DNA from: a virus
Taxonomy: Duplodnaviria; Caudoviricetes
Strand: one strand, 5' to 3'
Virus record (IMG/VR): IMGVR_UViG_3300037054_000205
Span: 1-59,698 of that record
Length of the DNA: 59,698 nucleotides
In this document: in pieces, positions 16,281 to 42,664 of the stretch
How positions within the stretch are numbered: the stretch's first letter is position 1
Layout of the letters: each line of letters starts with the position of its first letter
Made by a program: the position numbers and the translations under genes
Notes under the pieces: generated by a model
The model's database searches: none
What the model was told of the DNA's origin: nothing
The model's input: only the letters and a program-made list of their open reading frames with translations

Positions 16281-18191
16281 GTGTTCGAAGTCGACGACGA
16301 CCTACTCAAAAAGTATAAAGCCTCCATCGACCTCTCCAACTTCCCTCGGGAGTTCGTGAGGCAATTCAATTTGACGCATCCTGATAGCCAAGAGTTATGG
16401 TACCGTGAACGGTTCAAGTGCCTGAAGTACCACGTCTATCTCAGCGGTTACGCCGAAGCCACTAAGGCGGGCGATGAAGACAAGCCCATCAATTACGTGC
16501 CGATTCTTGGGATGGACTTCCAACCAGACCCCCACAATATCTTGTTCAGCCGCTTTGTCCAAAAACGCCCGGGAGAAAACAAAGTATTCCTGGACCTGGA
16601 ACTTCTCGCCAAAAAGATGATGATACTCTGGCCGCGAGGATTGTTCAAAACCTCTGCGGTCATTGTGGACATCGTTCAGACCATTCTGAACTACCCCAAC
16701 ATTCGCATATGCTTCCTGACGGGCGGCGACCAACTCGCCAAGCGGCAATTGGAGCGCGTGAAGCGCGTGTTCGAGAAGCCTTCACCCCGATTCAAGTGGT
16801 TGTTTCCCGAATTCTGTTTGAAGGATGTGCGCAACCGGAAAGTCAAGAACGATGACAGTGAGGCTGCGTGGACATCTGAACTTTGCAAGATGGGAACGCA
16901 ACATGAGTTCACGGTCCCGTGTCGGACGAACCTGACGTTCGCCGAACCGACGTTCGCTATTTCAACCGCGAAGTCCGTTAAGGCCGGGTCGCACTACGAC
17001 ATCATCTACATCGACGACTTGGTGAACGAACAAAACTACCGCAGCATTCCCATGTTGGAGAAATGCTACGACGACTATATCGCCATATGCCCGTTGCTTG
17101 AACCCTCGGGCTATATCGTCATGACCGGAACGCGGTACTCGTTCGGCGACACGTACGAACGCATTCAGGAGTTGGCGCACGACGAAGATAAACGAGAAGG
17201 TCGCAGCATTTGGAGGTTTTCGATTCGGGATTGCTGGAGTCATGGTTGCCAGAATTGCGTCCATACCAGCGTCTATCACGACTTCGAAAAGAACATCATA
17301 GAGCCGCCATGTATTATGCCCGGATGCGCGTGCCCGGGATTCAAAGACCGTGGCGATAAAGGCGTGCTGTTTCCGCTGACTCGGTCAGTAGACGGCAGAC
17401 CTATTGGGCACACCGTAGAAATGTTGGAGGCAAAACGCAGAGAGTATGGTCAGGAGTTCTTCGCAAACCAATACGAGAACTGCCCCATCGCGGCGGGAAC
17501 GCAGACCTTCGACGAAAATATGATAGGGGCTCAGACGTTCCACAACTTGAATCAGATGCCGTCCGACCCGAGCGGGTTCACCTTCGCAGTCGGGGACCTC
17601 GCGTACGTGGGTCAACCTGACCGCGACTACTCGGTGATTTACATCTGCAGGGCAATCCAAGGTCGCATCTGGGTGTACGACTGTCTTTTTGGGAACTGGG
17701 ACTCGGGGCAGGTCGCCGACGTCACGGTTGACGAAGTACTGTTAAAGTTCCGTCCGAACATCGTCTATTATGAAAAGGTCAACGGCTGGGACGGGTTCGA
17801 TAAACTCATCGCGGCGGCGGCGGCCACGCGCGGGATGCCCAAGGTCCCGCTGCAGTGGGAAAAGGGCTCGCAGGCTAAGAACGCCAAGATGCGGCGTATC
17901 GGCGATATCAAAGGCTGGATTACGAGTCGGCGCCTTTGGATTTACGGAGGGATGCGCGGGTACGATAAACTGGTTGCGCAACTCACCCATTGGCCGAAAC
18001 ACGGACGCCACGACGACTTTGCAGACTGTATGGGCATGGTGGTGGCGGCGCCGACCGGAGTGCAACTCAGCGCACCCCCGCCCGCCGACGACTCGGGGAA
18101 CTGGCTGCGGAAACTGCATGACATGAACCCTACCGGGCCGGGCAGCGATGCATACCCAGACAATGGATGCGGAAGCGGTGTCACATGCTAG
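16281..18191 (+). CDS. terL: terminase large subunit
   Basis: WPRGLFKTS Walker A variant, GSHYDIIYIDD Walker B, GTRY, GDLAY...DYS, HDDFADC nuclease motifs. Confidence 0.92.
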   Translation: MFEVDDDLLKKYKASIDLSNFPREFVRQFNLTHPDSQELWYRERFKCLKYHVYLSGYAEATKAGDEDKPINYVPILGMDFQPDPHNILFSRFVQKRPGENKVFLDLELLAKKMMILWPRGLFKTSAVIVDIVQTILNYPNIRICFLTGGDQLAKRQLERVKRVFEKPSPRFKWLFPEFCLKDVRNRKVKNDDSEAAWTSELCKMGTQHEFTVPCRTNLTFAEPTFAISTAKSVKAGSHYDIIYIDDLVNEQNYRSIPMLEKCYDDYIAICPLLEPSGYIVMTGTRYSFGDTYERIQELAHDEDKREGRSIWRFSIRDCWSHGCQNCVHTSVYHDFEKNIIEPPCIMPGCACPGFKDRGDKGVLFPLTRSVDGRPIGHTVEMLEAKRREYGQEFFANQYENCPIAAGTQTFDENMIGAQTFHNLNQMPSDPSGFTFAVGDLAYVGQPDRDYSVIYICRAIQGRIWVYDCLFGNWDSGQVADVTVDEVLLKFRPNIVYYEKVNGWDGFDKLIAAAAATRGMPKVPLQWEKGSQAKNAKMRRIGDIKGWITSRRLWIYGGMRGYDKLVAQLTHWPKHGRHDDFADCMGMVVAAPTGVQLSAPPPADDSGNWLRKLHDMNPTGPGSDAYPDNGCGSGVTC

Positions 18192-18236: not shown

Positions 18237-18716
18237 GTGTCAAATATACGTGGAAGTCAGTGGAGCAAACTGGCCGAAACCCCTTTTCGGATTGAAAATA
18301 GCAGGAGAAAATACCGATGTTCTCACGGGCGAAGACAAGATGCTTGTAGAGAATGCGGCGGGCTCAAATTAGCCGTTCGGTGCATGTACTATTCCGCCCG
18401 AACTCGGGCGCGTCGGGACGGAATACCGTTTACCATCTTGCGAGCGGAGATTTGGGATTTGGTAGGCGACGGGGTTTGTCCTGTGTTGGGTATTCGCTAT
18501 GAATTTGCGACTCAAAAAGGACAAGGAGGGTGTGATAGTTCGCCATCCCTTGACCGATTTTACCCCGAGCGTGGGTATGTCGCTGGGAATTGTTTTGTAA
18601 TCTCCAGCTTAGCCAACAGAATCAAAAATAATGCCACTTCTCCGCAAGTGGCTCAAGTGGCAACTTGGATGAAACAGACGGAAGAACAGATGGAGATTAC
18701 TTATGGCCGAGATTAA
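18237..18716 (+). CDS. HNH-like homing endonuclease
   Basis: CPVLG...SPSLDR...GYVAGNCFVISSLANRIK. Confidence 0.8.
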   Translation: MSNIRGSQWSKLAETPFRIENSRRKYRCSHGRRQDACRECGGLKLAVRCMYYSARTRARRDGIPFTILRAEIWDLVGDGVCPVLGIRYEFATQKGQGGCDSSPSLDRFYPERGYVAGNCFVISSLANRIKNNATSPQVAQVATWMKQTEEQMEITYGRD

Positions 18717-20937
18717 CAAAAAAAATGTGAACGCTACGGAGCATTTCACAGATTCTGGCCAAATCCGCATCATCGAACTGCCTGGAGCAATCCCGTACGG
18801 CGAGACCGCGATGCCGATTACCGCCGCGCAGGTTGCTTTCGACGACCAGTTGCGTTCTGACGTATCCATGCTACAGGAAGCGAACCTGAATCGCGAGGAA
18901 TCCGAAAGTTTTATCGCTACCCGTGGCTTGATTGGACGCTGGAACCTCGCGGAACTGATGTTACGCGCTTGGGTAGAGCCCGTGAAGTGGAAAGGGAGCG
19001 AGCAATTTCGGTCTCACCTCGGGGTACCCCTTGTCGCGGAGCAATTTTATAGCATTCACAGTGTCGTCAACCAAACTTTATTTGGCGGCTACCAAATTTT
19101 CAAAGTGGATGCGACTTCAGGCACGCCGTTGGATTGCGCCGAAGCCCAGCAAGCCATCCTGAACGCGCAGTTGAAGACCTGCGGGTACAAAGGCGTCTCA
19201 GCCAAGACCGAATTCCGCGAAATCACCTACGACGGACTGTTCTACGGGTTCGGCGTGGCTCACTACGGCTGGCAGAAGACGAAACAGAACATCATCAAGA
19301 AGGTGGCGAAATTCCATCCGCAGACGACCGTCGTAAACGGGGTCGCGGTGACGGTTCCGGTCGCAGATGAAGACGATTACACAGAAGAGATTGTCGGCGT
19401 GCTGGAATTCAATCAGCCGAAAATTGAACATGTGCCGATTCGGCGCTATCGTTATGCTCCTGACCTTCGTCGCGGCGACTCGCGCACCGCTGAATGGAGC
19501 GGGCGCCTACTTTATGTGACGTCCTATGACCTGGATGGGCTCCGAAACACGGACGGGTGGAAGATTCCTACCCGCGCCCAACTGGTAGCCCTCACAACTC
19601 CGCAAATGCAGAACAACGCGACCACGAACCCGCTCGAAACGATGGGTTCGAACACAGGACAACCGATTTTCCAGCAAACCACAACTCCGCAGAAGGCGTT
19701 GCCCGAAAATTACACCGAACGTACCGCGCATGACCCGTTGATGCGGAAATTCGAGCTATTCGACTACTGGACGAGCCTGCGGCATGTGATTATTCTCAAT
19801 AGAGAGTACGTGCTGCTGAATGAAACGCACAAATTCGGTCGTCCACCGTTTTTGAGTTTCTGTTTCCGCGCCGCGCCCGATTCCGCGCATGGATATGGCA
19901 TTGCTTTCTGGCTTACTGACTTTCAACGCATATGCAATGGCGTTATCAACTCGTTTTTGGACGATATGAACCTGAACATGATGGGAACCTACACCGCGCC
20001 CGCTGGCACCAACAACAGCGCTCAGGCTCAGTGGATATTCCCGGGGAAAATCTTCAAATCCGACACCCCGAACGGTAAAATCGAAGCTTTGACACGCAAC
20101 GGCATCGACGCGAAGGAACCTTTGGCGGTTATCGCGCAGATGAAGGCGTGGGCGGCGTCAATCACTGGCGCAGGCCCGGGTACCCTTGGGTCCAACCCCG
20201 GCGCGGCTGGGGATATGCGCACTCCTGCGGGAGTTGAAGCTTTGTCGGGCGGCGAATCGGTCAAGTTGCAAGATTTGGTGGATGTAATCTCCGAACAGGT
20301 ATTCGTTCCGTTCTTGGAGTTCTGTATTGACCAGAATCAGAAGTTGAAGCCGTCGCAACTGCGCGCGATGCTGTCGCAAGCTCTTGGTGAGGCATTCAAA
20401 GCCACGCCGCTGGACATTCTCAACGGCACCTACAAAGTTGACATCTCCGCAGCGACGAAACTCGCGGCGCGCGAAGCGTTGAATAAATACATGGGAATTC
20501 TGCAGACATTCTTGAGTTCCCCGGGCACCGTCGAGAACCTCGCTACGCAGGCGATGAAGTTGGACTACAACGCGATGTTCTCGGCCCTATATGACTCCTT
20601 CGGCGTCCCGTACAAGGAAAAGATTATCGTGCCGATGAACGACGACGACAAACAACGGCTGGCGGCCATGAAGAACCAGCAACAGCCGCAGGATAAGATG
20701 TCGTTGATTAAGGCTCAGGGCGAATCGAAGAAAGACATCGACAACAACCAAGCCGAGAATCGCATGCTGATTGAGACGGGCAAACACACACTCAATACAC
20801 ACGGCGCGGACCATCAAGCGACCATCGACCAAGCGCAAGCGAAGGCGGAAGCCGCCACGCCCCAAGCACAGGGTCTCGACCGGGCGGCGAAGGGTTCATT
20901 CGCCAATATGGATAAAGCCGCATTTCCAGGCAAGTAA
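18703..20937 (+). CDS. portal protein
   Basis: 744 aa, lies between terL and scaffold/capsid; DGLFYGFGV and helical C-terminus. Confidence 0.8.
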   Translation: MAEINKKNVNATEHFTDSGQIRIIELPGAIPYGETAMPITAAQVAFDDQLRSDVSMLQEANLNREESESFIATRGLIGRWNLAELMLRAWVEPVKWKGSEQFRSHLGVPLVAEQFYSIHSVVNQTLFGGYQIFKVDATSGTPLDCAEAQQAILNAQLKTCGYKGVSAKTEFREITYDGLFYGFGVAHYGWQKTKQNIIKKVAKFHPQTTVVNGVAVTVPVADEDDYTEEIVGVLEFNQPKIEHVPIRRYRYAPDLRRGDSRTAEWSGRLLYVTSYDLDGLRNTDGWKIPTRAQLVALTTPQMQNNATTNPLETMGSNTGQPIFQQTTTPQKALPENYTERTAHDPLMRKFELFDYWTSLRHVIILNREYVLLNETHKFGRPPFLSFCFRAAPDSAHGYGIAFWLTDFQRICNGVINSFLDDMNLNMMGTYTAPAGTNNSAQAQWIFPGKIFKSDTPNGKIEALTRNGIDAKEPLAVIAQMKAWAASITGAGPGTLGSNPGAAGDMRTPAGVEALSGGESVKLQDLVDVISEQVFVPFLEFCIDQNQKLKPSQLRAMLSQALGEAFKATPLDILNGTYKVDISAATKLAAREALNKYMGILQTFLSSPGTVENLATQAMKLDYNAMFSALYDSFGVPYKEKIIVPMNDDDKQRLAAMKNQQQPQDKMSLIKAQGESKKDIDNNQAENRMLIETGKHTLNTHGADHQATIDQAQAKAEAATPQAQGLDRAAKGSFANMDKAAFPGK

Positions 20938-21456: not shown

Positions 21457-22563
21457 ATGTCCGATGACACCCGAGTTTTGGCTACCCCGACCATGAACGA
21501 AGAGATTAACGCCGCCGTCCGGGCTGCGCTTGACCCCGCCGACGTTCGCGCGGCAATTTTGGCAGAAGCCGAAAAGCAAGGGCGCGCGTCTGACGATGCC
21601 GTTGCGGCTCAGGCTGCTGCGGACCAAGCCGTTGCTGATAAGGATGCCGCTGACGCTGCGCATGCCGCCGCGCCGAAAGCATTCACCCGCACCGAGACCA
21701 TCGCCGGGACGTCCTTCAACTTTGAAGCGGCCACGGAAATCGAGTTGGAACGCATGGTCAACAACGCATACCGCGTTGCGTACGCCGTGCAGAAGACTGA
21801 AGCGACCGCCACCGTTGTGGACCCCGCCACTACCGCCGCCGCTGCCAAGAAGGAAGCGGAAGCTGCCACTGCCCGCAAAGCCGAATTGGAATTGAATTTC
21901 CGAAGCGGGAATATCACCGCTGCCGAATACATCGAACAGTCAGGCGCGATGAGTGAGTACCTTGCCTCGCAGGGTGTGCCCCTCGACCAACTCAAACAGG
22001 TTGTGGAGCAAACACAAATGAACTCAGAAGCCCAATCGTGGGCCGACGCTGTCGAGGACTTCAAGAATTCTCCTGCTGGTAATGACTGGCCGGGTGGAGA
22101 TGGAAATCTCGTCACTCTTAATGACAAATTGCTTTCTCTTGGATTGGAGGACTCGACCGACAGAGTCGGGGCGTTGACCCGGGCATATGCGGCCATGAGA
22201 AAAGCGGGACAGGTGATTCCGTATACGCCGCCTGCAGAGGAACCAACGAATACTGCGGAAGAAGTTGCGGACGGTGCATCGCGCAGAGCACTTGCTGACA
22301 AACTGGCGAACGATGCTGCGGCTGCAGCGGCTGCGCTTAAAGCAAAGCCTCTGGCGGCGCGCACATCCTCTTCGCTTTTCGGTGCCAGTTCTGGCGTCAG
22401 CGACATACCCACCACAACCACCACAAAAGCGGGAGCAACAATCGAGATTCCGAGAGAAGTATCTCCTGCCGAAATTATTGACGCCTGGAAGAAAGCAGTA
22501 GTGGCGCAGGGTGGTTCTCCCAACGATGAGTTTAAGTCCGCCTTCGCGGGAAAAGCTCGATAA
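21457..22563 (+). CDS. capsid scaffolding protein
   Basis: Ala/Glu-rich helical protein immediately before the capsid gene; AAGGAG RBS. Confidence 0.7.
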   Translation: MSDDTRVLATPTMNEEINAAVRAALDPADVRAAILAEAEKQGRASDDAVAAQAAADQAVADKDAADAAHAAAPKAFTRTETIAGTSFNFEAATEIELERMVNNAYRVAYAVQKTEATATVVDPATTAAAAKKEAEAATARKAELELNFRSGNITAAEYIEQSGAMSEYLASQGVPLDQLKQVVEQTQMNSEAQSWADAVEDFKNSPAGNDWPGGDGNLVTLNDKLLSLGLEDSTDRVGALTRAYAAMRKAGQVIPYTPPAEEPTNTAEEVADGASRRALADKLANDAAAAAAALKAKPLAARTSSSLFGASSGVSDIPTTTTTKAGATIEIPREVSPAEIIDAWKKAVVAQGGSPNDEFKSAFAGKAR

Positions 22564-22756: not shown

Positions 22757-23752
22757 TTGATTCTACCTCCCGGCGTAGTCAGCACTACCTTAGCGGCTTT
22801 TCCGCAGATTGCTTACGACCGCACCGCCATTCTCGAATGGCAGTTCAATACACCTGTCTTGGAAGAGCTTTGCGACTTCCGTCCGCTGCCTCGGCGTTCG
22901 GGTCGGACGCTTCAGTTCTACGGGCAGACCCCGTTCGCTGCTGCGACCTACGACCTGTCCGAAGGTATTCCGGGTCCGTCACTCCAACTGAACCAAGTGT
23001 TCAGCGATGCATTCGCCGAGGAATACGGCGACTGGATTGGCGTGAGTAACGTAGCCCAGCAAATGTTCCTCGCGGACATTACGCTGGACGCCACCCGCAA
23101 CCTGTCTTACCGTGGCGCTCTCACGAGCAACTTGATTGCGATTAACGGATTCGAAGCTGCCTCAGTCGCGCAGCCGTCCGCCCGCATCGACCTGCTCGAC
23201 AACGAGTTTATGCTTTCCAACACCATTCGGAAGTGCGAATCCCAGTTGATGGGCAACGCTGTTCCGGGTCGTGATGGCGGGCTCTACACGGCTGCGATGC
23301 ATCCTTACGTTGTGTACGACTTCATGTCGGACAACAGCGCCGGGTCTGCCGTCGACGTGATGAAACGCAGTGAAGCTGGCTCGGCTGTCCTGAAGTCGGA
23401 CATGACGCGCGGCTACACCGTGCTGGAGTGGGCTGGCGTTCGAATCATACGCACCCAGACCACGCCGACCTACAGCAATTATCCTTCGGCGGGCAAGACT
23501 GGTTACGCCTCGTACGTGGTTGGCCGAGAAGCCATGATGGCTTCCGAGTTACTCGGCACCCGCGTCCCCCGCAACCCCAGTTTCAAAGTGAACGTGAAGA
23601 CCTTCGGCGACAACGACATCGACTTGTCGAACCCGATGCTTCAGACTCGCGCGATTGTTTCTTACGATTGGTTCCTTGGGGTCGTTGCGAGGCCAAACAC
23701 CAATAATACACCAGGATTCAGGCGTGTTCGTGGTGAAGTTTCCGCCGTGTAA
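22757..23752 (+). CDS. major capsid protein (N4-gp56-like)
   Basis: PLPRRSGRTLQF, LSEGIPG, EYGDWIGVS, MHPYVVYD, GVRIIRT; TTG start with AAGGAG. Confidence 0.88.
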   Translation: MILPPGVVSTTLAAFPQIAYDRTAILEWQFNTPVLEELCDFRPLPRRSGRTLQFYGQTPFAAATYDLSEGIPGPSLQLNQVFSDAFAEEYGDWIGVSNVAQQMFLADITLDATRNLSYRGALTSNLIAINGFEAASVAQPSARIDLLDNEFMLSNTIRKCESQLMGNAVPGRDGGLYTAAMHPYVVYDFMSDNSAGSAVDVMKRSEAGSAVLKSDMTRGYTVLEWAGVRIIRTQTTPTYSNYPSAGKTGYASYVVGREAMMASELLGTRVPRNPSFKVNVKTFGDNDIDLSNPMLQTRAIVSYDWFLGVVARPNTNNTPGFRRVRGEVSAV

Positions 23753-24528: not shown

Positions 24529-25155
24529 ATGGTCGTATACACGATAGTCAACAGTGAGACCTTAAAGATTTACATCGGACAGCACAATCGAGAGGACGAC
24601 CTAGGAAAGTATTTTTCAAAGAAATTTTACGATGCTCAACGTAAATCGGGAAAACGTTCGCACATCTACGCAGCGATGCGAAAATACTCCCGAGACAAGT
24701 GGAGCATTCACCCATTGATTTCAGGAATCGCGGATAAAAAAGAACTTGACGAAACCGAACAGCTTTTGATTTACGCACTGAACGCGCAGCATCCCGATGT
24801 AGGCTACAACATTTGTGATGGCGGCGAAGGTTTCACAGGACCCCAGTCGCCTGAAGCCAAAGCCAAAATCTCAGCGGCGCTAACAGGTCGTCCCGTGTCC
24901 GCAGAGACTCGTGCCAAAATCGGCGCATCCCAGCCTCGGTCAGCCGCTCAGTTGGCAGCCATTGACCGTACAGGAAAACCTCACACCCCTGAAACTATCG
25001 CAAAAATGATGGGCAACCAAAACTGTCTGGGTCGGGTAAACTCTGAAGAGACTTTGGTAAAGATGCGGGAGTCGGCGAAGATGCGGGGTATCTCACCAGA
25101 AACAAAGAAGAAGATGCAGGATGCTCGGTTTTTGAAGACCGTAGCGTGGGGATAG
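24529..25155 (+). CDS. GIY-YIG homing endonuclease with NUMOD3-type repeats
   Basis: VVYTIVN...KIYIGQ, GYNICDGGEG, SAETRAKI repeats. Confidence 0.88.
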   Translation: MVVYTIVNSETLKIYIGQHNREDDLGKYFSKKFYDAQRKSGKRSHIYAAMRKYSRDKWSIHPLISGIADKKELDETEQLLIYALNAQHPDVGYNICDGGEGFTGPQSPEAKAKISAALTGRPVSAETRAKIGASQPRSAAQLAAIDRTGKPHTPETIAKMMGNQNCLGRVNSEETLVKMRESAKMRGISPETKKKMQDARFLKTVAWG

Positions 25156-28437: not shown

Positions 28438-31400
28438 ATGGCCAACGGCGACCCAACAACGACTCCGACCGTGACTCCCCCCGCTGCCCCGGCAGCGCCT
28501 GACGCCACCCCTGCGCCTACTGACGAAGGGCTGCTGCATTCCTTCGCTACTGGATGGGGAGTTGACCCCGAGGCTGTCAAATGGGCGGCTAAGACTATTT
28601 GGAATGACCCCATCGGGTCGGCCAAAGCCATAGGCGGCGCGCAGGTAGACGAACTCAAACATGCATTTACGCACCCGATAGAAGCCGCGAAGGAAGTAGG
28701 GGAGGGGGTAGTGTCCGCCGTCACCCCGAACCCTGATGCGGTAAAGACGGCGCAAGCCCACCTACACGCACCGGGGCTTGTCAATAAATTGGTGGGCGGC
28801 GCGGAGTATTTGACCAGCGGCGTACCGTTGTTCGGTGCGGCTGGCGTCAAGGCCGAGGAGCAGGGCGCGAAGGGAAATATCCCCGGCATGCTTGGCACCA
28901 CGGCGGCTGTCGCCTCGCAAGTTTTCGCTGGCGGAAAAGCTGGCGAAGAATCGCCCAAACTTTCGAAGGAAACGAAGCTGGGGTCTGTTTCCCCCGAGGC
29001 TGGAAAAACTCCCGGCGAACTTGAACCGTTGAACCGTGCGAATGCGAAAACACTACAAGACCTGGGGTACTCCAACCAAACTATCACGAACTTGAATGCC
29101 ACCGAAGTTGACCATATTCTCAAGAACAACATTCCGGCACCCCCACGCGTCGACCTGACAAGCGAGGGCGCGAAAGAAGTCATGCCCGCCCCGCATATGC
29201 ATCCTCCCGCCGAAGATGTGGCGGCTACTGCTGCGGCTGCGGCGGAACCCGCAGACCTTCAGATGGGCGAATCTCGCAAAATAGATGTCCCGAAAGGAAG
29301 ACAGGGCTCGGACGCGCAGGTTATCCAAAAAGGGGGATGGCTCCTGCCTAATGGACAAAACTACGTGCATCCTGACCTTCACATGACTCATGGCGAATCT
29401 GCACTGGACGCGGGTTTTAGTGGACTTGGAGTGGTGAATCCATCCACCGGATTGGATATGCCCGATGCACTAACTGCGCGCATCCAGGCGTTGCGGAGTG
29501 GGGCCATTCGTTCTACTCTCGACCGAAAAGGAACGACCACCTTAGAGTTGTTTGGCATCACTGAAGAAAGTAAGCCGCGCTTGTTAGACGCGCTGGCAGT
29601 CGCACCGCCTCATAAGCCTGTATTTATTGCACATGCTGGAGGTAGAGGGGCCGAATTTCAAAACTCCAACTCAACCCAACAGTTTAGCAATCCCGCAGAG
29701 GCAATTGATTGGGTTGACCGCCAAGCAACGGTCAGTTCCATTCAGACAGGCGAGTCCAAGGGACCGTTAGCGAAACTCGGTATTGATACCACCACGCTGA
29801 AACCACCAAAGGGACAGGGACGGCGAGCCTTTGACCGCCCTGAGGGCGAGCCCGCAACAGGCGCGGAAGAAACTCCGACCACTGGGGCTACTTCAGACAA
29901 GGGCATCTTAGGCAGACTAGGCATTGACACCACTAAACTCCCGCCCGCGCCTGGGCAGGGCAGTCAAGCGTTTGACCGTCCGCAAGGAGGACACGCGGGC
30001 GGCGGCGTTGCGTCCCTCGAAGAATTGAATCGTCCTGGCCGCTTTGTTTCCGTTGACCGCGCGGGCACGACTAGTGACCAAGGAAAAACTCCAGACTTTA
30101 ATTTGCGTCCAGGCTCGGTCGGGTATCAAGTCAAGCCTGACGGCACGCACCAACTGATTGATGGGCAGGAAACTCCTACGCATAAAGCCGCCATTGAGAA
30201 TTACAAGCAGAACGTGTACCCGAGTCCTGCGCCCGAGCATCTCAACACCCTCGCCAAGCGCGGACAACTCGAAGGGCAGAGGTATAATCTCGGAGATATT
30301 GATGGCGCCACGTATCGCGGCGGCCTCGACCAATCACCGCGCCCGGGGTCCGAGGACGCGACGGACAAACTTCAGATGGGTGAGCGTCAATCACCGCTCA
30401 AGGAACCGTATACGGTTGAAGTGACGGACCAAGATGGAACCAAGCACACCGAGACGATTGAGGGATTCTCCTCGAAAAACGCGCTGGCGGCGGCGCAAAA
30501 ACAATTCCCGAACGGGTACAACTGGAGCCTCGCGTCAGGAAAGTCAGATGGACCCAGGACCCTGTCGACGGAATACACTCCCGGAACCAAGAAGCCCCTA
30601 TCCATGCGGGCTTCGAATACTGGCAGAACGGCGCGAGAGCGACGTGGGCATGAAGTCGGGCATGTAATGGAAGCGCAAGCGGTGGGGATAAAGCAACTTG
30701 GGATAGCGAGAAGTTCGCATCCAGATAATCGAGGAGATTATGACACCTTCGCCATCTTCTCAGGCGAAGGGGTATACGTTCCTGGGACGAGGGTCATCAA
30801 GCCGGAAAGGCGGATGGACGTCGTACGCCTTCTGGTGGGGGGCATCGCGAGAGATGAAGGCGCTGGATTGCATCGCGCTTCCAACCATAATTTCAGCATT
30901 AATCTTGAGGGTTCTGACGGTCATCAAGCCTACAGCATTTTGACGGCGGCAGACTACACGCATGAGAACGCAATGGACCGCATGAACCAACTCATAGACA
31001 TAGCTGCGGACCATCAGTCCAGACCTCACGTTGCCAGTGTCATCGAAGAGAATCTCGATACCCGCGAAGAGGGGCTATCTCGGCATTACGACTACAGTCC
31101 CGAGCGGTTGGATAATATGTGGGCTGAATCCCAGAGGAGAGCACAAAATGCAACCGAAAAGCGTGACGCTGCAGGAAATGGCGCAGGACTTGCTGAAGGA
31201 AGCCCAGAAAGCCTCGCCCGAGGAGAAAGCGGAATTTCGAAAGCAATTGGACCAGTATCTGAAGGACCAGATAGCGGCCCTGAACCCGGAGCAAAAGGCG
31301 AACTTTCTCAAACTCCAGGCGCAGAGAAAGAAGACCTCACCGCAGGAGCCAGCAAAGTAGCCCCCACTACAGGTGAGGAAGTGATTGCCAAACTAGAGAA

Positions 31401-34400
31401 ACCCCCTATCGGCTTCCAAGACGCTAAACCAATTCCGTATTCCTCCGACGCAGAGTTTACCAATCGAACCGCCCCTTCCATGATTCTGCCTGATGGCAGA
31501 ATTATCAACGCGCGGCTGGCTCATACTGAAATTGCGGCGGCTGCTGGTTTTAAGGATACTGGGTCATCGCTGGATAAAACGTACGTTTCTGGCGTAACCG
31601 CTTTTCAACGGGCAACCGGAGTGGTGCGAGTTATCTACCCCGAGCACGGCGGAAATATAGGCATTGAAATACACCAACGACCCTCTAATGACCAGTTAGG
31701 CATCATTGGAAAGAATCTAAAGAATGCGACTGCAGCGGGCAAGGGTGATGGTTCCCTGACGTGGGATTTGGCAGACGCTAACGGCAAATTCACATCGGGT
31801 CACGGGTCTATCGGGGATTTTCGGCGCGCGGTAGATACCGCTTATCTAGAGCAAGGTCTATCCAATCGCGTGAACTCCGCGCCCGTCACAAAGACGCCGA
31901 AACTACAAGCGGGCGAGATTAAAGGTGACGCTGTCGACAAGCCCGCTGCGACGTACCATGAAGCTGCCGCGACCGAAGGAAACCCGTGGGTGCGCCGTTC
32001 CGCTGACCCCGCCGACGACGCCGCCCCGACAAACAAGGGTCGGCAGGTAATGGTACAGTTCAGTTCTGACCTCATCAACAAGGACCTTCCGTCTGGCACA
32101 GGCGGGGCATATTATGACAAGCTGTACGGCGGCGCGCGCCCCGGCTACGCGCGCATGCAGGATACCTGGGAGATTCCGCAATGGATGGGATTTGCTTCCC
32201 ATGCACTGCCAAAAGCAGATGTCTATTTTGTCCGCGACATGGCGCAAGCGAAAAAGTTCTTGAACGAGGCGGGTTACGACCGCGCGCTCTTCAGCGCGCT
32301 GGACGTAAACACCCCGCTGATTAAGGAATTGGCGAAAGGTTACAAGGGCGCGGTGGACGTCGGCGGGTATCAGAAGCCTGGGACGTTCCTGGACAGCCCG
32401 AACGTCACGTACCATGCGTCTATCCAGGACATGATGAACCACCCCTACTATAAAGGGCAGGGCCTGGAATATAAGAACGGCACCGACTATCGGCACTTCG
32501 AAGGTTCTGATGTCATCCCTCGCCTGACCATGTCCGATGGCTGCTTGCACAAGTGCGCGTTCTGCGTGGTGGAAAAGAAGATTGACGTTACCCCGGAGAG
32601 CGTGGTCGACCAACAGGCTGAATCCATTGCAAAGCTCGGCGCGAAGCTGGTTTACCTGAATGACAAGACCTTCGGGCAAGCGTCAAACTATCAACATCTG
32701 TCCGACGTGTACGCGAAGATGAAAGAAGCGAATCCCGCGTTCCACGGCTTCGTCGTGCAGACCACTGCCGCCCAAATGGGCAAGATTCCTTCTGACTGGT
32801 TGCAGAAGTCGGGCATCAAGTATGTGGAACTCGGCATTGAAAGTTACAATGACCCCATCCTAAAGGAAATGCACAAGCCCGCGAACCAGAAACTGATTGA
32901 CGCGGCCACGCAGAAACTACGCGAGAACGGTATCGCGCTCATTCCGAACATCCTGGTCGGCTTGCCCGGCGAGACCGCGCAAACATACGCCAACACCCTG
33001 AAGTTCCTGCAGGATAACAAAGACATCATCTCGCACGCGAACATCTACAACCTCGCGCTGTATGAGAATTCAGAGTTGGGCAAGAAACTGACGACCGCCA
33101 ACCCCGACGACTTCAACGAGAACGTATTGGAGAAGTCATTCCACTCCGACCCCGCAGTGCATAAGCAGTTCGCGGGTGACCTGTACGGCGCTGCGCAGGA
33201 CATGTTAGACCAACCGCCCCCAAGCGCGACGAAGACGAATGAACCCGCTACGCTGCAGATGGGCTTTGCAAAACAGAAAGCTAAGGCTAAAGACCAAGCC
33301 CCGAAAATTACGGACATGACTGCGGAGGATTTGGCGTTCGACAAGAGGCACGCCGAGTTTGCTGCGCCCGATGCGGCTGCGGAAGAACCAGTGACGCCGA
33401 CTCGCGAAACAATCGTCGCCGCTAACGCCGACATTAAAGAGCGGCAGCGGATTCAAGACCATTTAGCAAAGGTGGATAAAAGAAATCAACCCGCCGAAGC
33501 TGCGGCTCCTGAAGTCGCGCGCACTGCCACGTCCCAAGAAGCCATTGCCAACATCGTCAAAAACAACGAGCATGACGATTACAAGGTTACACCCCCAGGC
33601 AAGGCCGTAGCGCGAGACGCTTATGGGTATTTGCTGGCTGATGGGAGTCTGGTCGAGAACGCCGACGATACCCGCGAGTACACCCATTCCCAACTTGCCG
33701 ACTTGTTGGACTGGGATGATATGAGGAACGCAAACGCCATCCGAACTAATGGTCCCGATAACATTGAGGTTCTGCATGACGCCCCGACCGAACAACAGCG
33801 CGGGGAAATAGCCCGATTCGTCAAAGAGGGCGGGAAAGACAAACTTACTTGGGACTTCCATAAAATCACAGACTTCGATGGCTACGAGAATTTTCTGCGC
33901 GGCTCAGATTCTCTATATGGCGGGGAAGACAAACCACCTCTCGAAAGCGGCGAAGGTAGCCTCGGGGATTTCCTGCGCGCGGCTGATAAGTTCTACAAGA
34001 AGCCCGAGCCAGTTTCTGGGGGAGCCTCGATAGGCGACCGTCTCCAAACTGGATTTGCGAAGACCAAGAAGCCTGCCGAGGCTGCGGCTCCTGAAGCGGC
34101 ACTGAAGTTCACGCACAAAACTTTCGGAGTCGATGACTCCATTGCCCGCGTGTCTGCGCTCGATGCCAAGGGAGAGGATGTCGGACACGTCACTTACGGG
34201 TTGCCTAAACCCGCGAAGCGCACGGGGGATTTCAGTGCCACGATAGCGATGGCGGCGGTTGACACTCCAGGTCAAGGTCTGGGCCAGAAACTTTATCTGC
34301 AAGCGGCGGATGCGGCGAAGACCAAAGGCGCGCGGTATTTGGTCTCCGACGTGGCGCACGGGGTGGACCCGTCCGCTGTTCGTGTTTGGGATGCGCTCGT

Positions 34401-36768
34401 GGCAAAAGGATATCCCGTAGAAAAGCTGGGCGCGAAGAACTATCGTATGGACCTTTCGAAATTTCAAACGCCATCGAATGCGGCTCCTGTCCAGAGTATA
34501 TATGAGAAAAAGGGAGCCCAAGAATTAGCAGACCATATCGGCGGAAGAGTGGTCGGGTCCGTCGCCACAAAGGGCGTCTCAACCCATGATTTAGATTTGG
34601 CGGTTGACACCTATGACCAACCTAAGATTGAAGCGGCGATGAAAGCCCGAGGATTTGAGCCGATAGGTAGTTCAGTAGTGTCTCCTGCCGAAGCAAAAAC
34701 ATCTGGTAAGACTTTTGGCGGCGATTCTGCCGACTGGAATCGAGCACACCATTTTGAAAATAACACGACGCAATCAAAAGCCTCGGAACCTCGGCGGAGG
34801 GTGGATATTTGGAGCAAAGAACCCGCTGAAAGCGATGTCATCGACCACATCAAGTCGGGCGGGCAGTTCGGTGTCCTGACCGCCGAGAACCCGCAGAACA
34901 GAACGCTGTCGGCGAAAGAGAACGCTACTCGCAACGAGGCCCTGCGCCAGCAACTGGAAGCGCGCGGACACGACCCAATCCAGTTGACTGGGCACTCCGA
35001 TGCGGTTGGCCCGGCGACGGAGAATCCCTTCTTTGTGAAAGACCTTCCTGCGGCTGAGACGGCGGCGCTGGGGCGCGAGCACGGACAACAGTCCGTCCTG
35101 ACGCATCAAGGTCTGCACGACCTGAACAAGGATGTGGTGAATCCGCTCGACCCGTCGCAAGGAATCATGACGGGTCCTGATGCCGAGAAGCAGAAGTATT
35201 TCTCCAAGCATGATGGACAGGCGTTCTCTGCACCAGTTAATTGGGATAAGACGGTTGCGCCGGAAGGAAAAGGGGAGTCTCTCTCTGGGGTTCCTGTTGT
35301 GAGCACGCGGGTGCCGCACGGGACCCTGAATAAAGTAAAGTTCCAGCGGCATGAAGATACAACCCGCATGTCCGACATGGAAGCAGCGACGGCGGCGCCT
35401 GGATATCTGCAAAAGATGATGGACAAGGTACACGATATTCCCGGGTTTGTCGCGCCGCAGGGCGGGACCATTCAGGAGCAAACCGAAGCCTTTATTCAGC
35501 ACGGGCTGGACAACATAATGTTCGTTCACTCTAAGATGACACCTGAAAAAATCGCACTGAACAAGCAGTGGTACCCGGTTGGAGCGCATGGACGCGGAAT
35601 CATTCTCGCGCATCAAAATGGGATTACGCCCGCGCAAGCCTACGGCATCACGTCGGTCGAGTCGCCGCTAACGGACTGGGACCAGAACACATCCTTGGCC
35701 GAGCGTACCGCCAGCATCTATCAGCAACAGCAAAACACGCGCTTCACGCCGGAAATGGCAAAAGCCGCCGACGCGATTCTTACCATACCCGCTATGGCAG
35801 GATTCAAAAAATCGTTTAGTTTGCTTCGCGGGAAGACTCTCGCCGAACTACCGGATATCGAGGATAAGGCATACTGGCTACGCATCTACGACGAAGCCCA
35901 CAACCCCCGCGAGTATATGCAATGGAACGCGGACGGCACCCAGGCGGGCATCGCTAGGAGCATGGACGGCACGCCAAGGGCAGTAGGCTGGAGTTTCTTC
36001 ACTCATATTGAGAAGGCAATCAGGATTGCCCAGGACGGGTCTCCAGAAAATATCAGTCGACAACTAGGGCTGAATCATAAGGTGCGGAACTTCTACAACA
36101 ACCAAGCCGACCCAGACAACCCGCGATACCTGACCATCGACACCCATGCGGGCGCCGTAGCGCAGTTGCGCCCGTTGTCGGGAGGGCATCCTGACATTTT
36201 CCACATCTTCGGGAATCCATCCAACAACGCGTTTGGTCTCTCTGGCACCTATCCGCTTTATGACGAGATGTACAGGCGGGCAGCGAAAAAACTTGACGAA
36301 CCTATCCCGAGCAGGGTACAATCGTCCGTATGGGCGGAGATTCGAGAAGTGTTCAACGACGATTTTAAGACGCCAGAGAATCTGGCCGCAGTAGACGCGA
36401 TTTGGAAGGAGTCGACCGATGGCAAAATCACAGCCGACGAAGCCCGAAACAGAATCTGGGACTTCGCAACTCGATGGAACAGAGAAGCTGCTGAAAAAGG
36501 GCGGGCTTCCGATAACCAGGGAAAACTATTTGCTCCTGACGTTTCTGGGACACCCGCCAGCGGAACCCCTGAGCGAGGAAATGGAGCAGGAGTTGCCCCA
36601 CCACCTGCAGCGGAAGAGGTAGGCGATACCTCGTTTGACTTCGGTGCGAACGTCAAGCCGGAAGCGGGCAGCTTCGGGCGGGCGCCGAAAAAGAGCAAGG
36701 CGAAAACGCAACTGAACGCCGTAGACCTCCTGAAGGCTTTGAGCAACCTGAAGAAACCCGCACGCTAG
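28438..36768 (+). CDS. giant multidomain (polyvalent-type) protein, probably virion-injected: zincin protease, radical SAM, GNAT, nucleotidyltransferase, DUF3293-like, glycosylase-like domains and three copies of an unknown domain
   Basis: 2776-aa ORF; HEVGH, CLHKCAFC, GQGLGQKLY, GS..DLD, LTAENP, KVRNFYNN..TIDTHA motifs. Confidence 0.85.
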   Translation: MANGDPTTTPTVTPPAAPAAPDATPAPTDEGLLHSFATGWGVDPEAVKWAAKTIWNDPIGSAKAIGGAQVDELKHAFTHPIEAAKEVGEGVVSAVTPNPDAVKTAQAHLHAPGLVNKLVGGAEYLTSGVPLFGAAGVKAEEQGAKGNIPGMLGTTAAVASQVFAGGKAGEESPKLSKETKLGSVSPEAGKTPGELEPLNRANAKTLQDLGYSNQTITNLNATEVDHILKNNIPAPPRVDLTSEGAKEVMPAPHMHPPAEDVAATAAAAAEPADLQMGESRKIDVPKGRQGSDAQVIQKGGWLLPNGQNYVHPDLHMTHGESALDAGFSGLGVVNPSTGLDMPDALTARIQALRSGAIRSTLDRKGTTTLELFGITEESKPRLLDALAVAPPHKPVFIAHAGGRGAEFQNSNSTQQFSNPAEAIDWVDRQATVSSIQTGESKGPLAKLGIDTTTLKPPKGQGRRAFDRPEGEPATGAEETPTTGATSDKGILGRLGIDTTKLPPAPGQGSQAFDRPQGGHAGGGVASLEELNRPGRFVSVDRAGTTSDQGKTPDFNLRPGSVGYQVKPDGTHQLIDGQETPTHKAAIENYKQNVYPSPAPEHLNTLAKRGQLEGQRYNLGDIDGATYRGGLDQSPRPGSEDATDKLQMGERQSPLKEPYTVEVTDQDGTKHTETIEGFSSKNALAAAQKQFPNGYNWSLASGKSDGPRTLSTEYTPGTKKPLSMRASNTGRTARERRGHEVGHVMEAQAVGIKQLGIARSSHPDNRGDYDTFAIFSGEGVYVPGTRVIKPERRMDVVRLLVGGIARDEGAGLHRASNHNFSINLEGSDGHQAYSILTAADYTHENAMDRMNQLIDIAADHQSRPHVASVIEENLDTREEGLSRHYDYSPERLDNMWAESQRRAQNATEKRDAAGNGAGLAEGSPESLARGESGISKAIGPVSEGPDSGPEPGAKGELSQTPGAEKEDLTAGASKVAPTTGEEVIAKLEKPPIGFQDAKPIPYSSDAEFTNRTAPSMILPDGRIINARLAHTEIAAAAGFKDTGSSLDKTYVSGVTAFQRATGVVRVIYPEHGGNIGIEIHQRPSNDQLGIIGKNLKNATAAGKGDGSLTWDLADANGKFTSGHGSIGDFRRAVDTAYLEQGLSNRVNSAPVTKTPKLQAGEIKGDAVDKPAATYHEAAATEGNPWVRRSADPADDAAPTNKGRQVMVQFSSDLINKDLPSGTGGAYYDKLYGGARPGYARMQDTWEIPQWMGFASHALPKADVYFVRDMAQAKKFLNEAGYDRALFSALDVNTPLIKELAKGYKGAVDVGGYQKPGTFLDSPNVTYHASIQDMMNHPYYKGQGLEYKNGTDYRHFEGSDVIPRLTMSDGCLHKCAFCVVEKKIDVTPESVVDQQAESIAKLGAKLVYLNDKTFGQASNYQHLSDVYAKMKEANPAFHGFVVQTTAAQMGKIPSDWLQKSGIKYVELGIESYNDPILKEMHKPANQKLIDAATQKLRENGIALIPNILVGLPGETAQTYANTLKFLQDNKDIISHANIYNLALYENSELGKKLTTANPDDFNENVLEKSFHSDPAVHKQFAGDLYGAAQDMLDQPPPSATKTNEPATLQMGFAKQKAKAKDQAPKITDMTAEDLAFDKRHAEFAAPDAAAEEPVTPTRETIVAANADIKERQRIQDHLAKVDKRNQPAEAAAPEVARTATSQEAIANIVKNNEHDDYKVTPPGKAVARDAYGYLLADGSLVENADDTREYTHSQLADLLDWDDMRNANAIRTNGPDNIEVLHDAPTEQQRGEIARFVKEGGKDKLTWDFHKITDFDGYENFLRGSDSLYGGEDKPPLESGEGSLGDFLRAADKFYKKPEPVSGGASIGDRLQTGFAKTKKPAEAAAPEAALKFTHKTFGVDDSIARVSALDAKGEDVGHVTYGLPKPAKRTGDFSATIAMAAVDTPGQGLGQKLYLQAADAAKTKGARYLVSDVAHGVDPSAVRVWDALVAKGYPVEKLGAKNYRMDLSKFQTPSNAAPVQSIYEKKGAQELADHIGGRVVGSVATKGVSTHDLDLAVDTYDQPKIEAAMKARGFEPIGSSVVSPAEAKTSGKTFGGDSADWNRAHHFENNTTQSKASEPRRRVDIWSKEPAESDVIDHIKSGGQFGVLTAENPQNRTLSAKENATRNEALRQQLEARGHDPIQLTGHSDAVGPATENPFFVKDLPAAETAALGREHGQQSVLTHQGLHDLNKDVVNPLDPSQGIMTGPDAEKQKYFSKHDGQAFSAPVNWDKTVAPEGKGESLSGVPVVSTRVPHGTLNKVKFQRHEDTTRMSDMEAATAAPGYLQKMMDKVHDIPGFVAPQGGTIQEQTEAFIQHGLDNIMFVHSKMTPEKIALNKQWYPVGAHGRGIILAHQNGITPAQAYGITSVESPLTDWDQNTSLAERTASIYQQQQNTRFTPEMAKAADAILTIPAMAGFKKSFSLLRGKTLAELPDIEDKAYWLRIYDEAHNPREYMQWNADGTQAGIARSMDGTPRAVGWSFFTHIEKAIRIAQDGSPENISRQLGLNHKVRNFYNNQADPDNPRYLTIDTHAGAVAQLRPLSGGHPDIFHIFGNPSNNAFGLSGTYPLYDEMYRRAAKKLDEPIPSRVQSSVWAEIREVFNDDFKTPENLAAVDAIWKESTDGKITADEARNRIWDFATRWNREAAEKGRASDNQGKLFAPDVSGTPASGTPERGNGAGVAPPPAAEEVGDTSFDFGANVKPEAGSFGRAPKKSKAKTQLNAVDLLKALSNLKKPAR
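31148..31360 (+). CDS. nested +1-frame gene inside the giant ORF (70 aa, helical)
   Basis: AGGAG at 31135-31139, 8 nt before ATG; MQPKSVTLQEMAQDLLKEAQKASPEEKAEFRKQLDQYL... Confidence 0.6.
   Translation: MQPKSVTLQEMAQDLLKEAQKASPEEKAEFRKQLDQYLKDQIAALNPEQKANFLKLQAQRKKTSPQEPAK
36419..36622 (+). CDS. nested +1-frame gene inside the giant ORF (67 aa)
   Basis: AAGGAG at 36406-36411, 7 nt before ATG; protein-like GLPITRENYLLLTFLGHPP...EQELP. Confidence 0.65.
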   Translation: MAKSQPTKPETESGTSQLDGTEKLLKKGGLPITRENYLLLTFLGHPPAEPLSEEMEQELPHHLQRKR

Positions 36769-41038: not shown

Positions 41039-42045
41039 GCAGCAAAGATGAAGTTTCCACCAATCTCGATGACATCGTCGCCAAGATTGAAAAAGACCAC
41101 GGCAAGGGGAGCATCATGATGTTGGGTAGCAAGAAGTTTGCTCCCATCGACGTGATACCCACCTCTTCACTAGCTCTCGATGAAGCCCTGGGCGTCGGAG
41201 GTCTCCCGCGCGGGCGGGTAATCGAAATCTACGGGCCGGAATCGGGCGGCAAGACCACGCTGTCGCTGCACTGCATCGCCGAGGCCCAGAAGCTGGGCGG
41301 CAAGGCGGCGTTCATTGACGCAGAGAACGCCCTGGACCCTATCTATGCCCGCAAGTTAGGCGTAGATGTCGACCACCTCCTGGTATCCCAGCCTGACAAC
41401 GGCGAACAGGCTTTGGAAATTGCAAAGACCCTGATTGAGTCGGGCAAAATTGCTATCGTCGTCATCGACTCAGTCGCGGCGTTAGTCCCGAGGGCCGAAC
41501 TTGAAGGGGATATGGGAGACCCCCAGATGGGGCTGCAGGCCCGGCTGATGTCGCAAGCGCTGCGGAAGCTTACTGCCTTGACTAACAAGACCCGTACCGT
41601 TGTCATCTTCATCAACCAGATTCGGGAGAAGATTGGGGTCATGTTCGGCAGTCCCGAGACCACAACGGGAGGGCGCGCGCTGAAGTTTTACGCTTCCGTG
41701 CGGCTCGACATTCGAAAGACCGGGCCGATTAAAGACGGGGACAAAGTCATCGGGGCCGAAACCCGCATCAAGGTGGTGAAAAATAAGGTGGCCTCTCCGT
41801 TCTGCGTGGCCGAAGTCAAGATTCTGTATGGGCAAGGTATCTCCCGCGAAAGTGATTTGTTGACTCTGGGGGTCCTGCGCAACGTCATCGAAAAGAACGG
41901 GTCCTGGTTGTCGTATAAGGGCGAGAGAATTGGGCAAGGGGCGGAGCAGGCGCGTTTATTTCTCGTGAATCATGTTGACATCGCCACCAAGATTGATGTA
42001 GAATTACGGAATATAATTTTCAAAAAAGAGGTGACAGTTGATTAA
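41035..42045 (+). CDS. recA: recombinase RecA
   Basis: [59 protein letters not shown]. Confidence 0.98.
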
Positions 42046-42664
42046 CACGAGTCCTGCAGAACATGCCTATGTCGAAGGCACCCCGCTCTTTGATATGTGC
42101 CGCATTTGTGGTTTGCATTACACAGCCCACACTCTGAACTACCGCGACGGGATAGTGCCCTGGGGGCTCGGGGGGACCGTCTCCCCCGCTCCGCAAGCTC
42201 CCGAACCACCATCTGTGACTGTCCAGACCACAGCAGGTGATAATGACAAATGGGCGGGTGGAAAAGTTCACCCGGATGAACCCCAATCTGTTCTGCCTTC
42301 CGACGCGGCGGCACGAAAGGGAATTCCAATCGGAACCGGGGTCATAGATTATTTCCCAGCAGCCTTAGCGGAAGTCGCCAAGGTGTCGTTCGCGGGGAAC
42401 CAGCAACATAATCCCGGCGAACCTCTACATTGGTCGCGCGGGAAGTCTACCGACCAAGCCGACACGATAATCCGGCATTACCTGGAGCGCGGGAAGATTG
42501 ACAGTGACGGACAGCGGCACTCCGCGAAGCTGGCATGGCGGACTCTCGCGCTATTGCAGCTTGAACTCGAAGAGGCAGGAGCCCCACTCGCACGAGGGGC
42601 TACTTTACCCGACGCCGCCCCGCAGGTTTATCCTGGATATGCCATCATCAAGGGGAAAATATGA
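42038..42664 (+). CDS. dATP/dGTP diphosphohydrolase-like (DUF5664-type) protein
   Basis: [18 protein letters not shown]...W...IRH...HSAKLAW. Confidence 0.75.

Follow-up and report, generated by a model that had tools for sequence, protein, structure and literature searches.

How many genes are written in the last part of a giant phage gene? The question is raised by the viral record IMGVR_UViG_3300037054_000205, a linear record of 59,698 bases estimated to be 60% complete, which was analysed over its whole length and is referred to here as the window. A gene of 2776 codons on its plus strand (28438–36768, taken from the open reading frame (ORF) list and its translation) encodes a giant polyvalent protein. 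The region 35470–36622, at the 3′ end of this gene, had been described in a first-pass annotation as a glycosylase-like domain followed by a small nested gene, the two being likened to a toxin and its immunity protein hidden within one ORF. The reading that we favour, at a probability of about 85%, is that this DNA is dual-coding: the main frame would encode a domain of the DUF7178 family, and a separate small partner gene would start inside the last helix of that domain, with a product that is predicted to dock on it.

The nested gene has 67 codons (36419–36622, plus strand), is read in the +1 frame relative to the giant gene and belongs to an unnamed family. The whole ORF lies within 28438–36768, on the same strand and in another frame, and it has start signals of its own, as first annotated: a Shine-Dalgarno (SD) sequence, AAGGAG (36406–36411), stands 7 nucleotides before the ATG. 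The +1 frame is closed by a stop at 36392–36394, eight codons 5′ of this ATG, and AAGGAG followed by seven nucleotides and a start codon is also used by real genes of the same phage, at 21457 and 22757. The ORF had been said to start at the end of the domain; it does lie near that end, but its first ~26 codons overlap the last domain helix, so that it begins shortly before it. Modelled alone with AlphaFold 2 (AF2), the small protein forms three short helices (residues 20–27, 34–41 and 53–58) after a disordered N-terminus. Its consensus is D-x-VL-x-LKK-x-x-LP-x-TRENYL-x-LAY...E-x-E-x-x-LP, and the conserved core (residues 19–60, 36473–36598, plus strand; alignment A2) carries the residues predicted to touch the domain.

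Within the window, the length of such an ORF is unremarkable. Five ATG-initiated ORFs of at least 67 codons were observed in the +1 frame of the giant gene against a mean of 3.7 in synonymous shuffles, and at least one was present in 99.8% of 1000 synonymous shuffles. An AAGGAG-N5–9-ATG signal opening an off-frame ORF of at least 60 codons arose in 5.4% of 2000 shuffles. A chance ORF was the first reading, fitted by these shuffle statistics, and was ruled out by comparative data; the window alone cannot decide whether the ORF is real, and the decision therefore fell to its relatives.

A scan of viral contigs with the single protein found no relative; an alignment-based scan found 587 relatives of the domain, the best 80 of which formed the forward set. 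In 72 of these 80 loci a hidden Markov model of the small protein, used after tblastn, gave one match per locus, always just 3′ of the domain. The phage LS06-2018-MD07 likewise carries a homologue of the small gene just 3′ of its domain, and in an independent collection of bacterial genomes the small gene is found at 19 of 32 domain loci, including three Bradyrhizobium isolates. In these isolates (L098, L102, L105) it is nested in ORFs that run ~2 kb further. The eight viral misses comprise a locus cut just after the small-ORF start (L079), a doubtful divergent copy (L084) and six loci without an open frame at that place. For the reverse direction, 80 viral loci were fetched with a narrower small-protein alignment, so that the count is valid for that subfamily only: a DUF7178 domain ends within 150 nucleotides in 79 of them, and the remaining locus is cut 104 nucleotides upstream. 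The expectation that homologues of GLPITRENYL...E.ELP always neighbour the domain is thus borne out from the side of the small gene (79 of 79 assessable loci) but not from that of the domain, which stands without a partner in 6–7 of 80 viral and 13 of 32 genome loci.

The small protein is widely represented in sequence databases. Its profile matches 460 database clusters, all annotated as "hypothetical" and typically 62–65 residues long, which together with the reciprocal linkage contradicts the suspicion that the ORF lacks homologues or linkage. It has no significant match to a Pfam or PHROG family, and its model matches no PDB fold at E ≤ 1e-3. Used alone, the protein gave at best matches with E of 4–7 in tblastn against isolated phages, and a word-index protein search and the ESM Atlas returned nothing. 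Gene callers drop ORFs nested in longer ones, and the family is therefore missed where it is nested. Four of the proteins are longer than a single small module: P0275 is an in-frame fusion of the module to a DUF7178 C-terminus, P0273 is a tandem duplication of the module, and two are unclear. In P0276 the module lies amid Cys-rich stretches.

In a tblastn control, matches in 1–15 loci were also obtained with other segments, off-frame or antisense, that cover conserved parts, so similarity of the +1 frame by tblastn is not proof of a gene. The frame under selection was read from a frame-agnostic nucleotide alignment of 29 nested loci. Inside the domain, main-frame position 3 is the most variable (0.44–0.55). 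In the small-gene core the peak of variability moves to main-frame position 1, which is small-frame position 3, and within the LPxTRENYL block variability is 0.009 at main position 3 against 0.408 at small position 3. The six sequences of the window's own clade repeat this switch, and in them variability is low at every position of the first 15 small-ORF codons (0.04/0.14/0.08), which is the pattern that a double constraint should leave. Amino-acid identity over the core, in an alignment guided by the small frame, is 0.478 for the small frame, 0.313 for the main frame and 0.311 for the third. The switch in variability and the existence of free-standing homologues point to purifying selection on the embedded frame, and on these comparisons of sequence the nested ORF is a real gene kept by selection.

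The layout of the small gene was compared in 74 loci, consisting of 72 of the 80 viral loci, the locus of phage LS06-2018-MD07 (L002) and the window itself. In 53 the gene is nested in the +1 frame, in 11 it partly overlaps the end of the big gene, and in 10 it is free-standing after the main stop. The free-standing copies occur in either other frame and have a GGAGG and an ATG of their own. At 70 of the 74 loci (65 with ATG) the small gene retains a start codon and an SD-like motif, compared with 37 of 846 control off-frame ATGs (4.4%) in the domain-coding part. These figures bear directly on the proposal that the frame is open by chance and is conserved as a by-product of main-frame selection. 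That proposal fits the ordinary length of the ORF (99.8% of shuffles), the matches of off-frame segments to relatives in 1–15 loci and the empty single-protein searches (P0002), but it does not account for ten free-standing copies beyond the main stop, for variability that follows the small frame while main-frame conservation does not exceed that of the third frame, for SD and start signals at 70 of 74 loci against 4.4% of controls, or for 460 called proteins that match. We consider it extremely improbable.

The same layout speaks to the idea that there is no separate gene and that, through a programmed +1 frameshift, the giant protein can end in a different C-terminus read in the small frame. 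Both frames are open for ~200 nucleotides, and P0275 has the module in frame with the end of the domain. Against this, the +1 frame has a stop eight codons before the ATG, an SD sequence and ATG are kept in 65–70 of 74 loci, and the free-standing copies start after the main stop with their own GGAGG and ATG. A frameshift product is accordingly very unlikely.

Another possibility is a selfish or mobile insertion lodged in the linker, like the HNH genes hidden in phage methylase genes. Out-of-frame insertions that the host gene reads through are on record: actinophage methylase genes are reported to hold hidden out-of-frame HNH endonuclease insertions such as the ShiLan element (PMC11855218). 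In both cases an out-of-frame gene sits in a host gene that remains free of stops and reads it through as a loop or linker. The ShiLan homing endonucleases are selfish insertions, whereas the small protein has no nuclease domain, is tied to one domain and is predicted to bind it. With no nuclease or mobility domain found by Pfam or PHROG, the same neighbouring domain in 79 of 79 assessable loci and a predicted binding mode, an origin as a mobile insertion is scarcely probable.

In the window the main frame passes from the domain into a disordered G/P/S/A-rich linker (36511–36723, plus strand; residues 348–418, predicted local distance difference test (pLDDT) <50 in AF2) that spans the nested gene, and the small-gene core coincides exactly with the stretch that the big protein reads as disordered linker. 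By reading on past the nested gene the big protein reaches a main-frame C-terminal tail (36625–36765, plus strand) with conserved motifs of its own, DTSFDFGAN and then a basic helix, ...LKALSNLKKPAR (modelled helix 417–428). The tail motifs of the window clade, DTSF(D/N)FGAN and the basic terminal helix, lie 3′ of the small-gene stop and recur in P0003, P0004, P0008 and P0010 and in L005–L009. Where the small gene is free-standing or only partly overlaps, the stop of the domain gene comes directly after ...AGGINEPEWKQ; at nested loci the main frame runs on through a G/P/S/A-rich stretch and ends in a short basic tail or leads to further domains. At the level of sequence, computation shows that the big gene merely stays open across the nested gene. 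The likely ancestral order would be a domain gene followed by a separate partner gene, and once further parts were fused downstream, the big frame would have had to stay open across the partner.

The domain that the small gene accompanies is all-alpha, with a putative HhH-GPD-glycosylase-like fold, and extends over 35299–36507 (plus strand), the confidently modelled core being 35470–36507. It matches DUF7178 (PF23802) in two stretches (57.6 bits, cut-off 27; E 2.1e-15). The main-frame motifs on which the first-pass annotation had drawn were located where it had placed them, namely QWYPVGAH, then VESPLTDWDQNTS, LNHKVRNFYNNQADPDNPRYLTIDTHAGAVAQL and YPLYDEMYRRAAKKLDEPIPSRVQSSVWAEI. The annotation had given 35470 as the start; the conserved unit begins ~170 nucleotides further 5′, with a VSTRVP motif at 35299. 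An exhaustive phmmer search with the translation of 35470–36768 found 2073 representative clusters at E ≤ 1e-3, 1212 of them at E ≤ 1e-30, mostly within proteins of 500–4400 residues, and delimited a conserved core at query residues ~5–335. Three isolated phages have the domain: Roseobacter phage CRP-738 (gp40, beside the portal), LS06-2018-MD07 and zth2-2. A blastn search of the region against phages gave zero matches, and a literature search found no publication on DUF7178. In an alignment of 36 rows (A1) the invariant residues are R138, G200, H203, K204, R206, F208, N211, P215, T222, D224, T225, H226, G256, G259, Y261, Q284, S285 and W288. They include the block H-K-x-R-x-F-x-x-N...P...T-x-D-T-H (HKVRNFYNN...TIDTH in the window, 36076–36147, plus strand; A1), a candidate catalytic centre.

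Is the domain a glycosylase? The AF2 model of the 35470 query is all-alpha, with pLDDT >90 over residues 1–345 and a disordered segment (pLDDT <50) over residues 348–418. When it was compared with 48,161 chains by VIA-align, HhH-GPD glycosylases or a related queuine-salvage enzyme (DUF2419) made up 20 of the 21 top rows (Z 9.0–5.2). The best of these were 3n0u (Z 9.0, root-mean-square deviation 3.9, 185 residues aligned), 7u07 (Z 8.0) and 1xqp (Z 7.2), and endonuclease III, Mag1, OGG1, MagIII, MutY, ROS1 and AlkA were among the others. HhH-GPD glycosylases (endonuclease III, MutY, OGG, AlkA) and the queuine-salvage DUF2419 are thus the best fold matches of the model. The spacing of the invariant K204, P215 and D224-T225-H226 suits HhH-GPD, with no residue-level alignment to a known member obtained. 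By eye, the invariant Lys ~20 residues before the invariant Asp of x-D-T-H resembles GRKTAN...AVDTH of endonuclease III, a likeness without hhalign support. The domain differs from HhH-GPD glycosylases in being bigger (~345 residues) and in lacking sequence or profile similarity to them. The HhH-GPD-like fold proposed earlier is thus the best structural match, at the level of the fold, and was recovered by none of the sequence-level tests (PF00730, hhalign, PDB profile). As all of these are negative, membership of HhH-GPD is not established, and "glycosylase-like fold" is a reasonable description of the model. On this footing, DUF7178 may be a glycosidic-bond or nucleic-acid-processing enzyme.

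Binding between the two products was addressed by co-folding domain residues 1–346 (alignment A1) with the small protein (alignment A2), in three runs with three controls. The co-fold score was 0.82 in the three runs against 0.01 for the best control, which supports the predicted binding. In calibration, 58 of 80 solved complexes attained this score mark, as did 2 of 110 mismatched pairs, counts that hold roughly, the alignments being self-made. The runs share at least 75% of contacts, with a partner pLDDT of at least 76. On the domain side the predicted interface comprises residues 66–67, 103–118, 129–142, 174–181, 225 and 237–241, and on the side of the small protein residues 19–30, 39–45 and 52–58. 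These models predict that the small protein docks on the DUF7178 domain that is translated from the mRNA they share.

Several observations weigh against this picture of a glycosylase-like domain and its docked partner, and they concern the fold, the interface and the linkage. For the fold, the VIA-align Z values are middling for a helical protein, Foldseek of the domain model against the PDB gave no match at E ≤ 1e-3, and Pfam PF00730 was not found in the window at E ≤ 10, though 14 of 14 control genomes were positive. Likewise, hhalign of A1 against an alignment of EndoIII and MutY gave a probability of 0.07%, and a sequence-profile search of the PDB with the domain found nothing relevant. 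As to the interface, the docking is a prediction expressed as model confidence, and the contacts lie mostly on peripheral helices (103–142); the site borders D224-T225-H226 and reaches T225 but not H203, K204 or R206. Because it misses that cluster, blocking of the active site is not indicated. In domains without a partner, conservation drops by 0.268 at the interface against 0.189 elsewhere, a difference reached by 257 of 10,000 random sets, which is weak and confounded by relatedness. The small protein of the window has an isoelectric point of 6.3 (family core median 4.4), and this mildly acidic value weakens the idea of a DNA mimic. Finally, the domain occurs without the small gene in 6–7 of 80 loci from viral contigs, in 13 of 32 from bacterial genomes and in the phages CRP-738 and zth2-2; about one in five of the domain loci studied lacks the gene. 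In the AT-rich viral contigs L021, L023, L061, L064 and L076 the partner-less DUF7178 continues in frame, at the place that the small gene occupies in other loci, as a conserved stretch, PVW(F/Y)EY(M/L)AD.N..S(M/L)D.NSAA.DQ, which may be a replacement for the partner.

What, then, would the partner be for? In the mechanism that we propose for the dual-coding locus, the main frame would encode a glycosylase-shaped enzyme domain with an invariant H-K-x-R...D-T-H centre. The small three-helix protein would be the selected product of DNA that the big protein reads only as linker, and it would keep the enzyme quiet in the producing cell as a domain-specific inhibitor or antidote. We give this role not quite an even chance. 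It is suggested by two domains that each have their own partner, by a layout like that of effector and immunity genes, by the mostly acidic core and by a partner that is dispensable in about a fifth of loci. A true partner that is not an inhibitor, such as a chaperone for folding or assembly, an accessory subunit, or an adaptor through which the domain is packaged or processed, is also possible, at clearly less than even odds. Such a role would suit a co-fold site that lies mainly on the peripheral hairpin 103–142, away from the invariant H/K/R cluster, and the in-frame fusion tolerated in P0275, and the two domains with different small partners fit domain-specific chaperones as well as antidotes. 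It is opposed by the domain loci without a small gene, about a fifth, which imply that the protein is not an obligate subunit, and by the lack of similarity to known chaperone families in Pfam, PHROG, ESM Atlas and PDB fold searches.

The nested design occurs twice in the giant gene, in the same relative frame, as had been proposed from a second ORF at 31148. A HExxH metallopeptidase-like domain (30358–31152, plus strand), with HEVGH at 30649 and no Pfam match, shows H98, E99, G101 and H102 as invariant residues in its alignment (A3). It is accompanied by a second nested gene of 70 codons (31148–31360, plus strand) in the +1 frame, with GAGGAG at 31134–31139, 8 nucleotides, an ATG and a core of LTxEQL...MSPEEKAE(V/F)RKxL. 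A +1-frame homologue with a GGAG-type SD sequence and ATG is present in 18 of the 18 viral loci fetched with the HExxH domain, and the switch of variability to the small frame is seen again (17 distinct sequences). The 3′ half of the window's gene looks like a decayed repeat of the gene, and in L127 two copies stand in tandem. No further nested genes were seen in the giant gene, in loci covering the surroundings of the two domains only.

Small genes embedded in phage genes have precedents. In phage lambda, the complete small spanin gene Rz1 has its own start and lies in the +1 frame inside the larger gene Rz, and the two products act as a complex. The small gene of the window is embedded in the same manner, in the +1 frame and with a start of its own. 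It differs from Rz1 in that the host gene is a multi-enzyme polyvalent gene of 2776 codons and the part overlapped is a disordered linker instead of a functional region. Its products are unrelated to spanins, one gene holds the arrangement twice, and some relatives have it un-nested. A second comparison is with the effector-immunity cassettes of polymorphic toxins and with the small glycosylase inhibitors Ugi and p56. As in these systems, a small, mostly acidic protein is encoded right after an enzyme domain and is predicted, from the co-fold models, to bind it, and the adjacency is consistent (72 of 80 and 19 of 32 loci forward, 79 of 79 assessable loci in reverse). Unlike in effector-immunity cassettes, the partner gene does not come after a stop but lies out of frame within the effector gene, and the predicted interface is not clearly over the presumed active site.

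Polyvalent proteins of phages and conjugative elements are giant multidomain proteins, as set out in the main text of the paper that describes them (Iyer et al., 2017, PMC5512222). The protein of the window agrees with that account in lying near head genes and in joining peptidase-like and nucleic-acid-enzyme-like domains by linkers, whereas nested partner genes are no part of the concept as the main text describes it (PMC5512222). The words "glycosylase", "overlapping" and "radical SAM" are absent from that main text, supplements aside. Embedded phage genes and the read-through of out-of-frame HNH genes are known, and nested partner genes in polyvalent proteins were not found in the literature, supplements aside.

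The giant protein has Pfam matches to Radical_SAM (residues 1365–1524), DUF3293 (2147–2220) and DUF7178 (2523–2637, best stretch), and a PHROGs scan found phrog_3842 alone, a family without an assigned function. Its homologues are multidomain proteins of 500–4400 amino acids. The gene is located 3′ of the large terminase (16281–18191), portal (18703–20937) and major head protein (22757–23752) and 5′ of endonuclease VII, a ParB-like gene, RecA, ERF, UvrD helicase and primase. With Radical SAM, DUF3293, DUF7178 and HExxH domains within 2776 amino acids of a viral record, 3′ of head genes, it has the features of a polyvalent protein and is probably delivered with the virion. The radical SAM domain inside this phage polyvalent protein lies at 32530–33009, with CxxxCxxC at 32542. 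Five main-frame LQ(M/A/T)G motifs are found at domain boundaries of the giant protein (29257, 30370, 31903, 33253 and 34042; residues 274, 645, 1156, 1606 and 1869), against ~0.2 by a rough composition estimate. A TSF(D/N)FGAN motif (SFDFGAN at 36631 in the window) recurs in the linkers of relatives. Both motifs may be signals for processing, by a prohead protease, or for packaging. Elsewhere, the protein encoded at 42038–42664 has a match to PF18909, the N-terminal domain found in dATP/dGTP diphosphohydrolases (E 3.8e-9). This hints at modified-nucleotide metabolism, which could have a bearing on the targets that a glycosylase-like effector attacks or has to leave intact. A homing-endonuclease-like gene stands among the head genes at 24529–25155 (phrog_314, E 1.4e-28).

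DUF7178 is widespread and has no known function, and its pairing with a partner offers a testable route to one. Some disordered linkers of giant phage proteins would be conserved because another gene is written in them. More broadly, and at well under even odds, phage polyvalent genes may carry a hidden layer of genes in which each effector domain has its own out-of-frame antidote gene, the cassettes are shuffled as units and the linkers are partly read-through shadows; the window would then display two such cassettes, one behind the HExxH domain and one behind DUF7178. Should the partner prove to be an inhibitor, polyvalent effectors would resemble polymorphic toxins in having antidotes built in, and this would alter the view of how phage weapons are controlled and exchanged.

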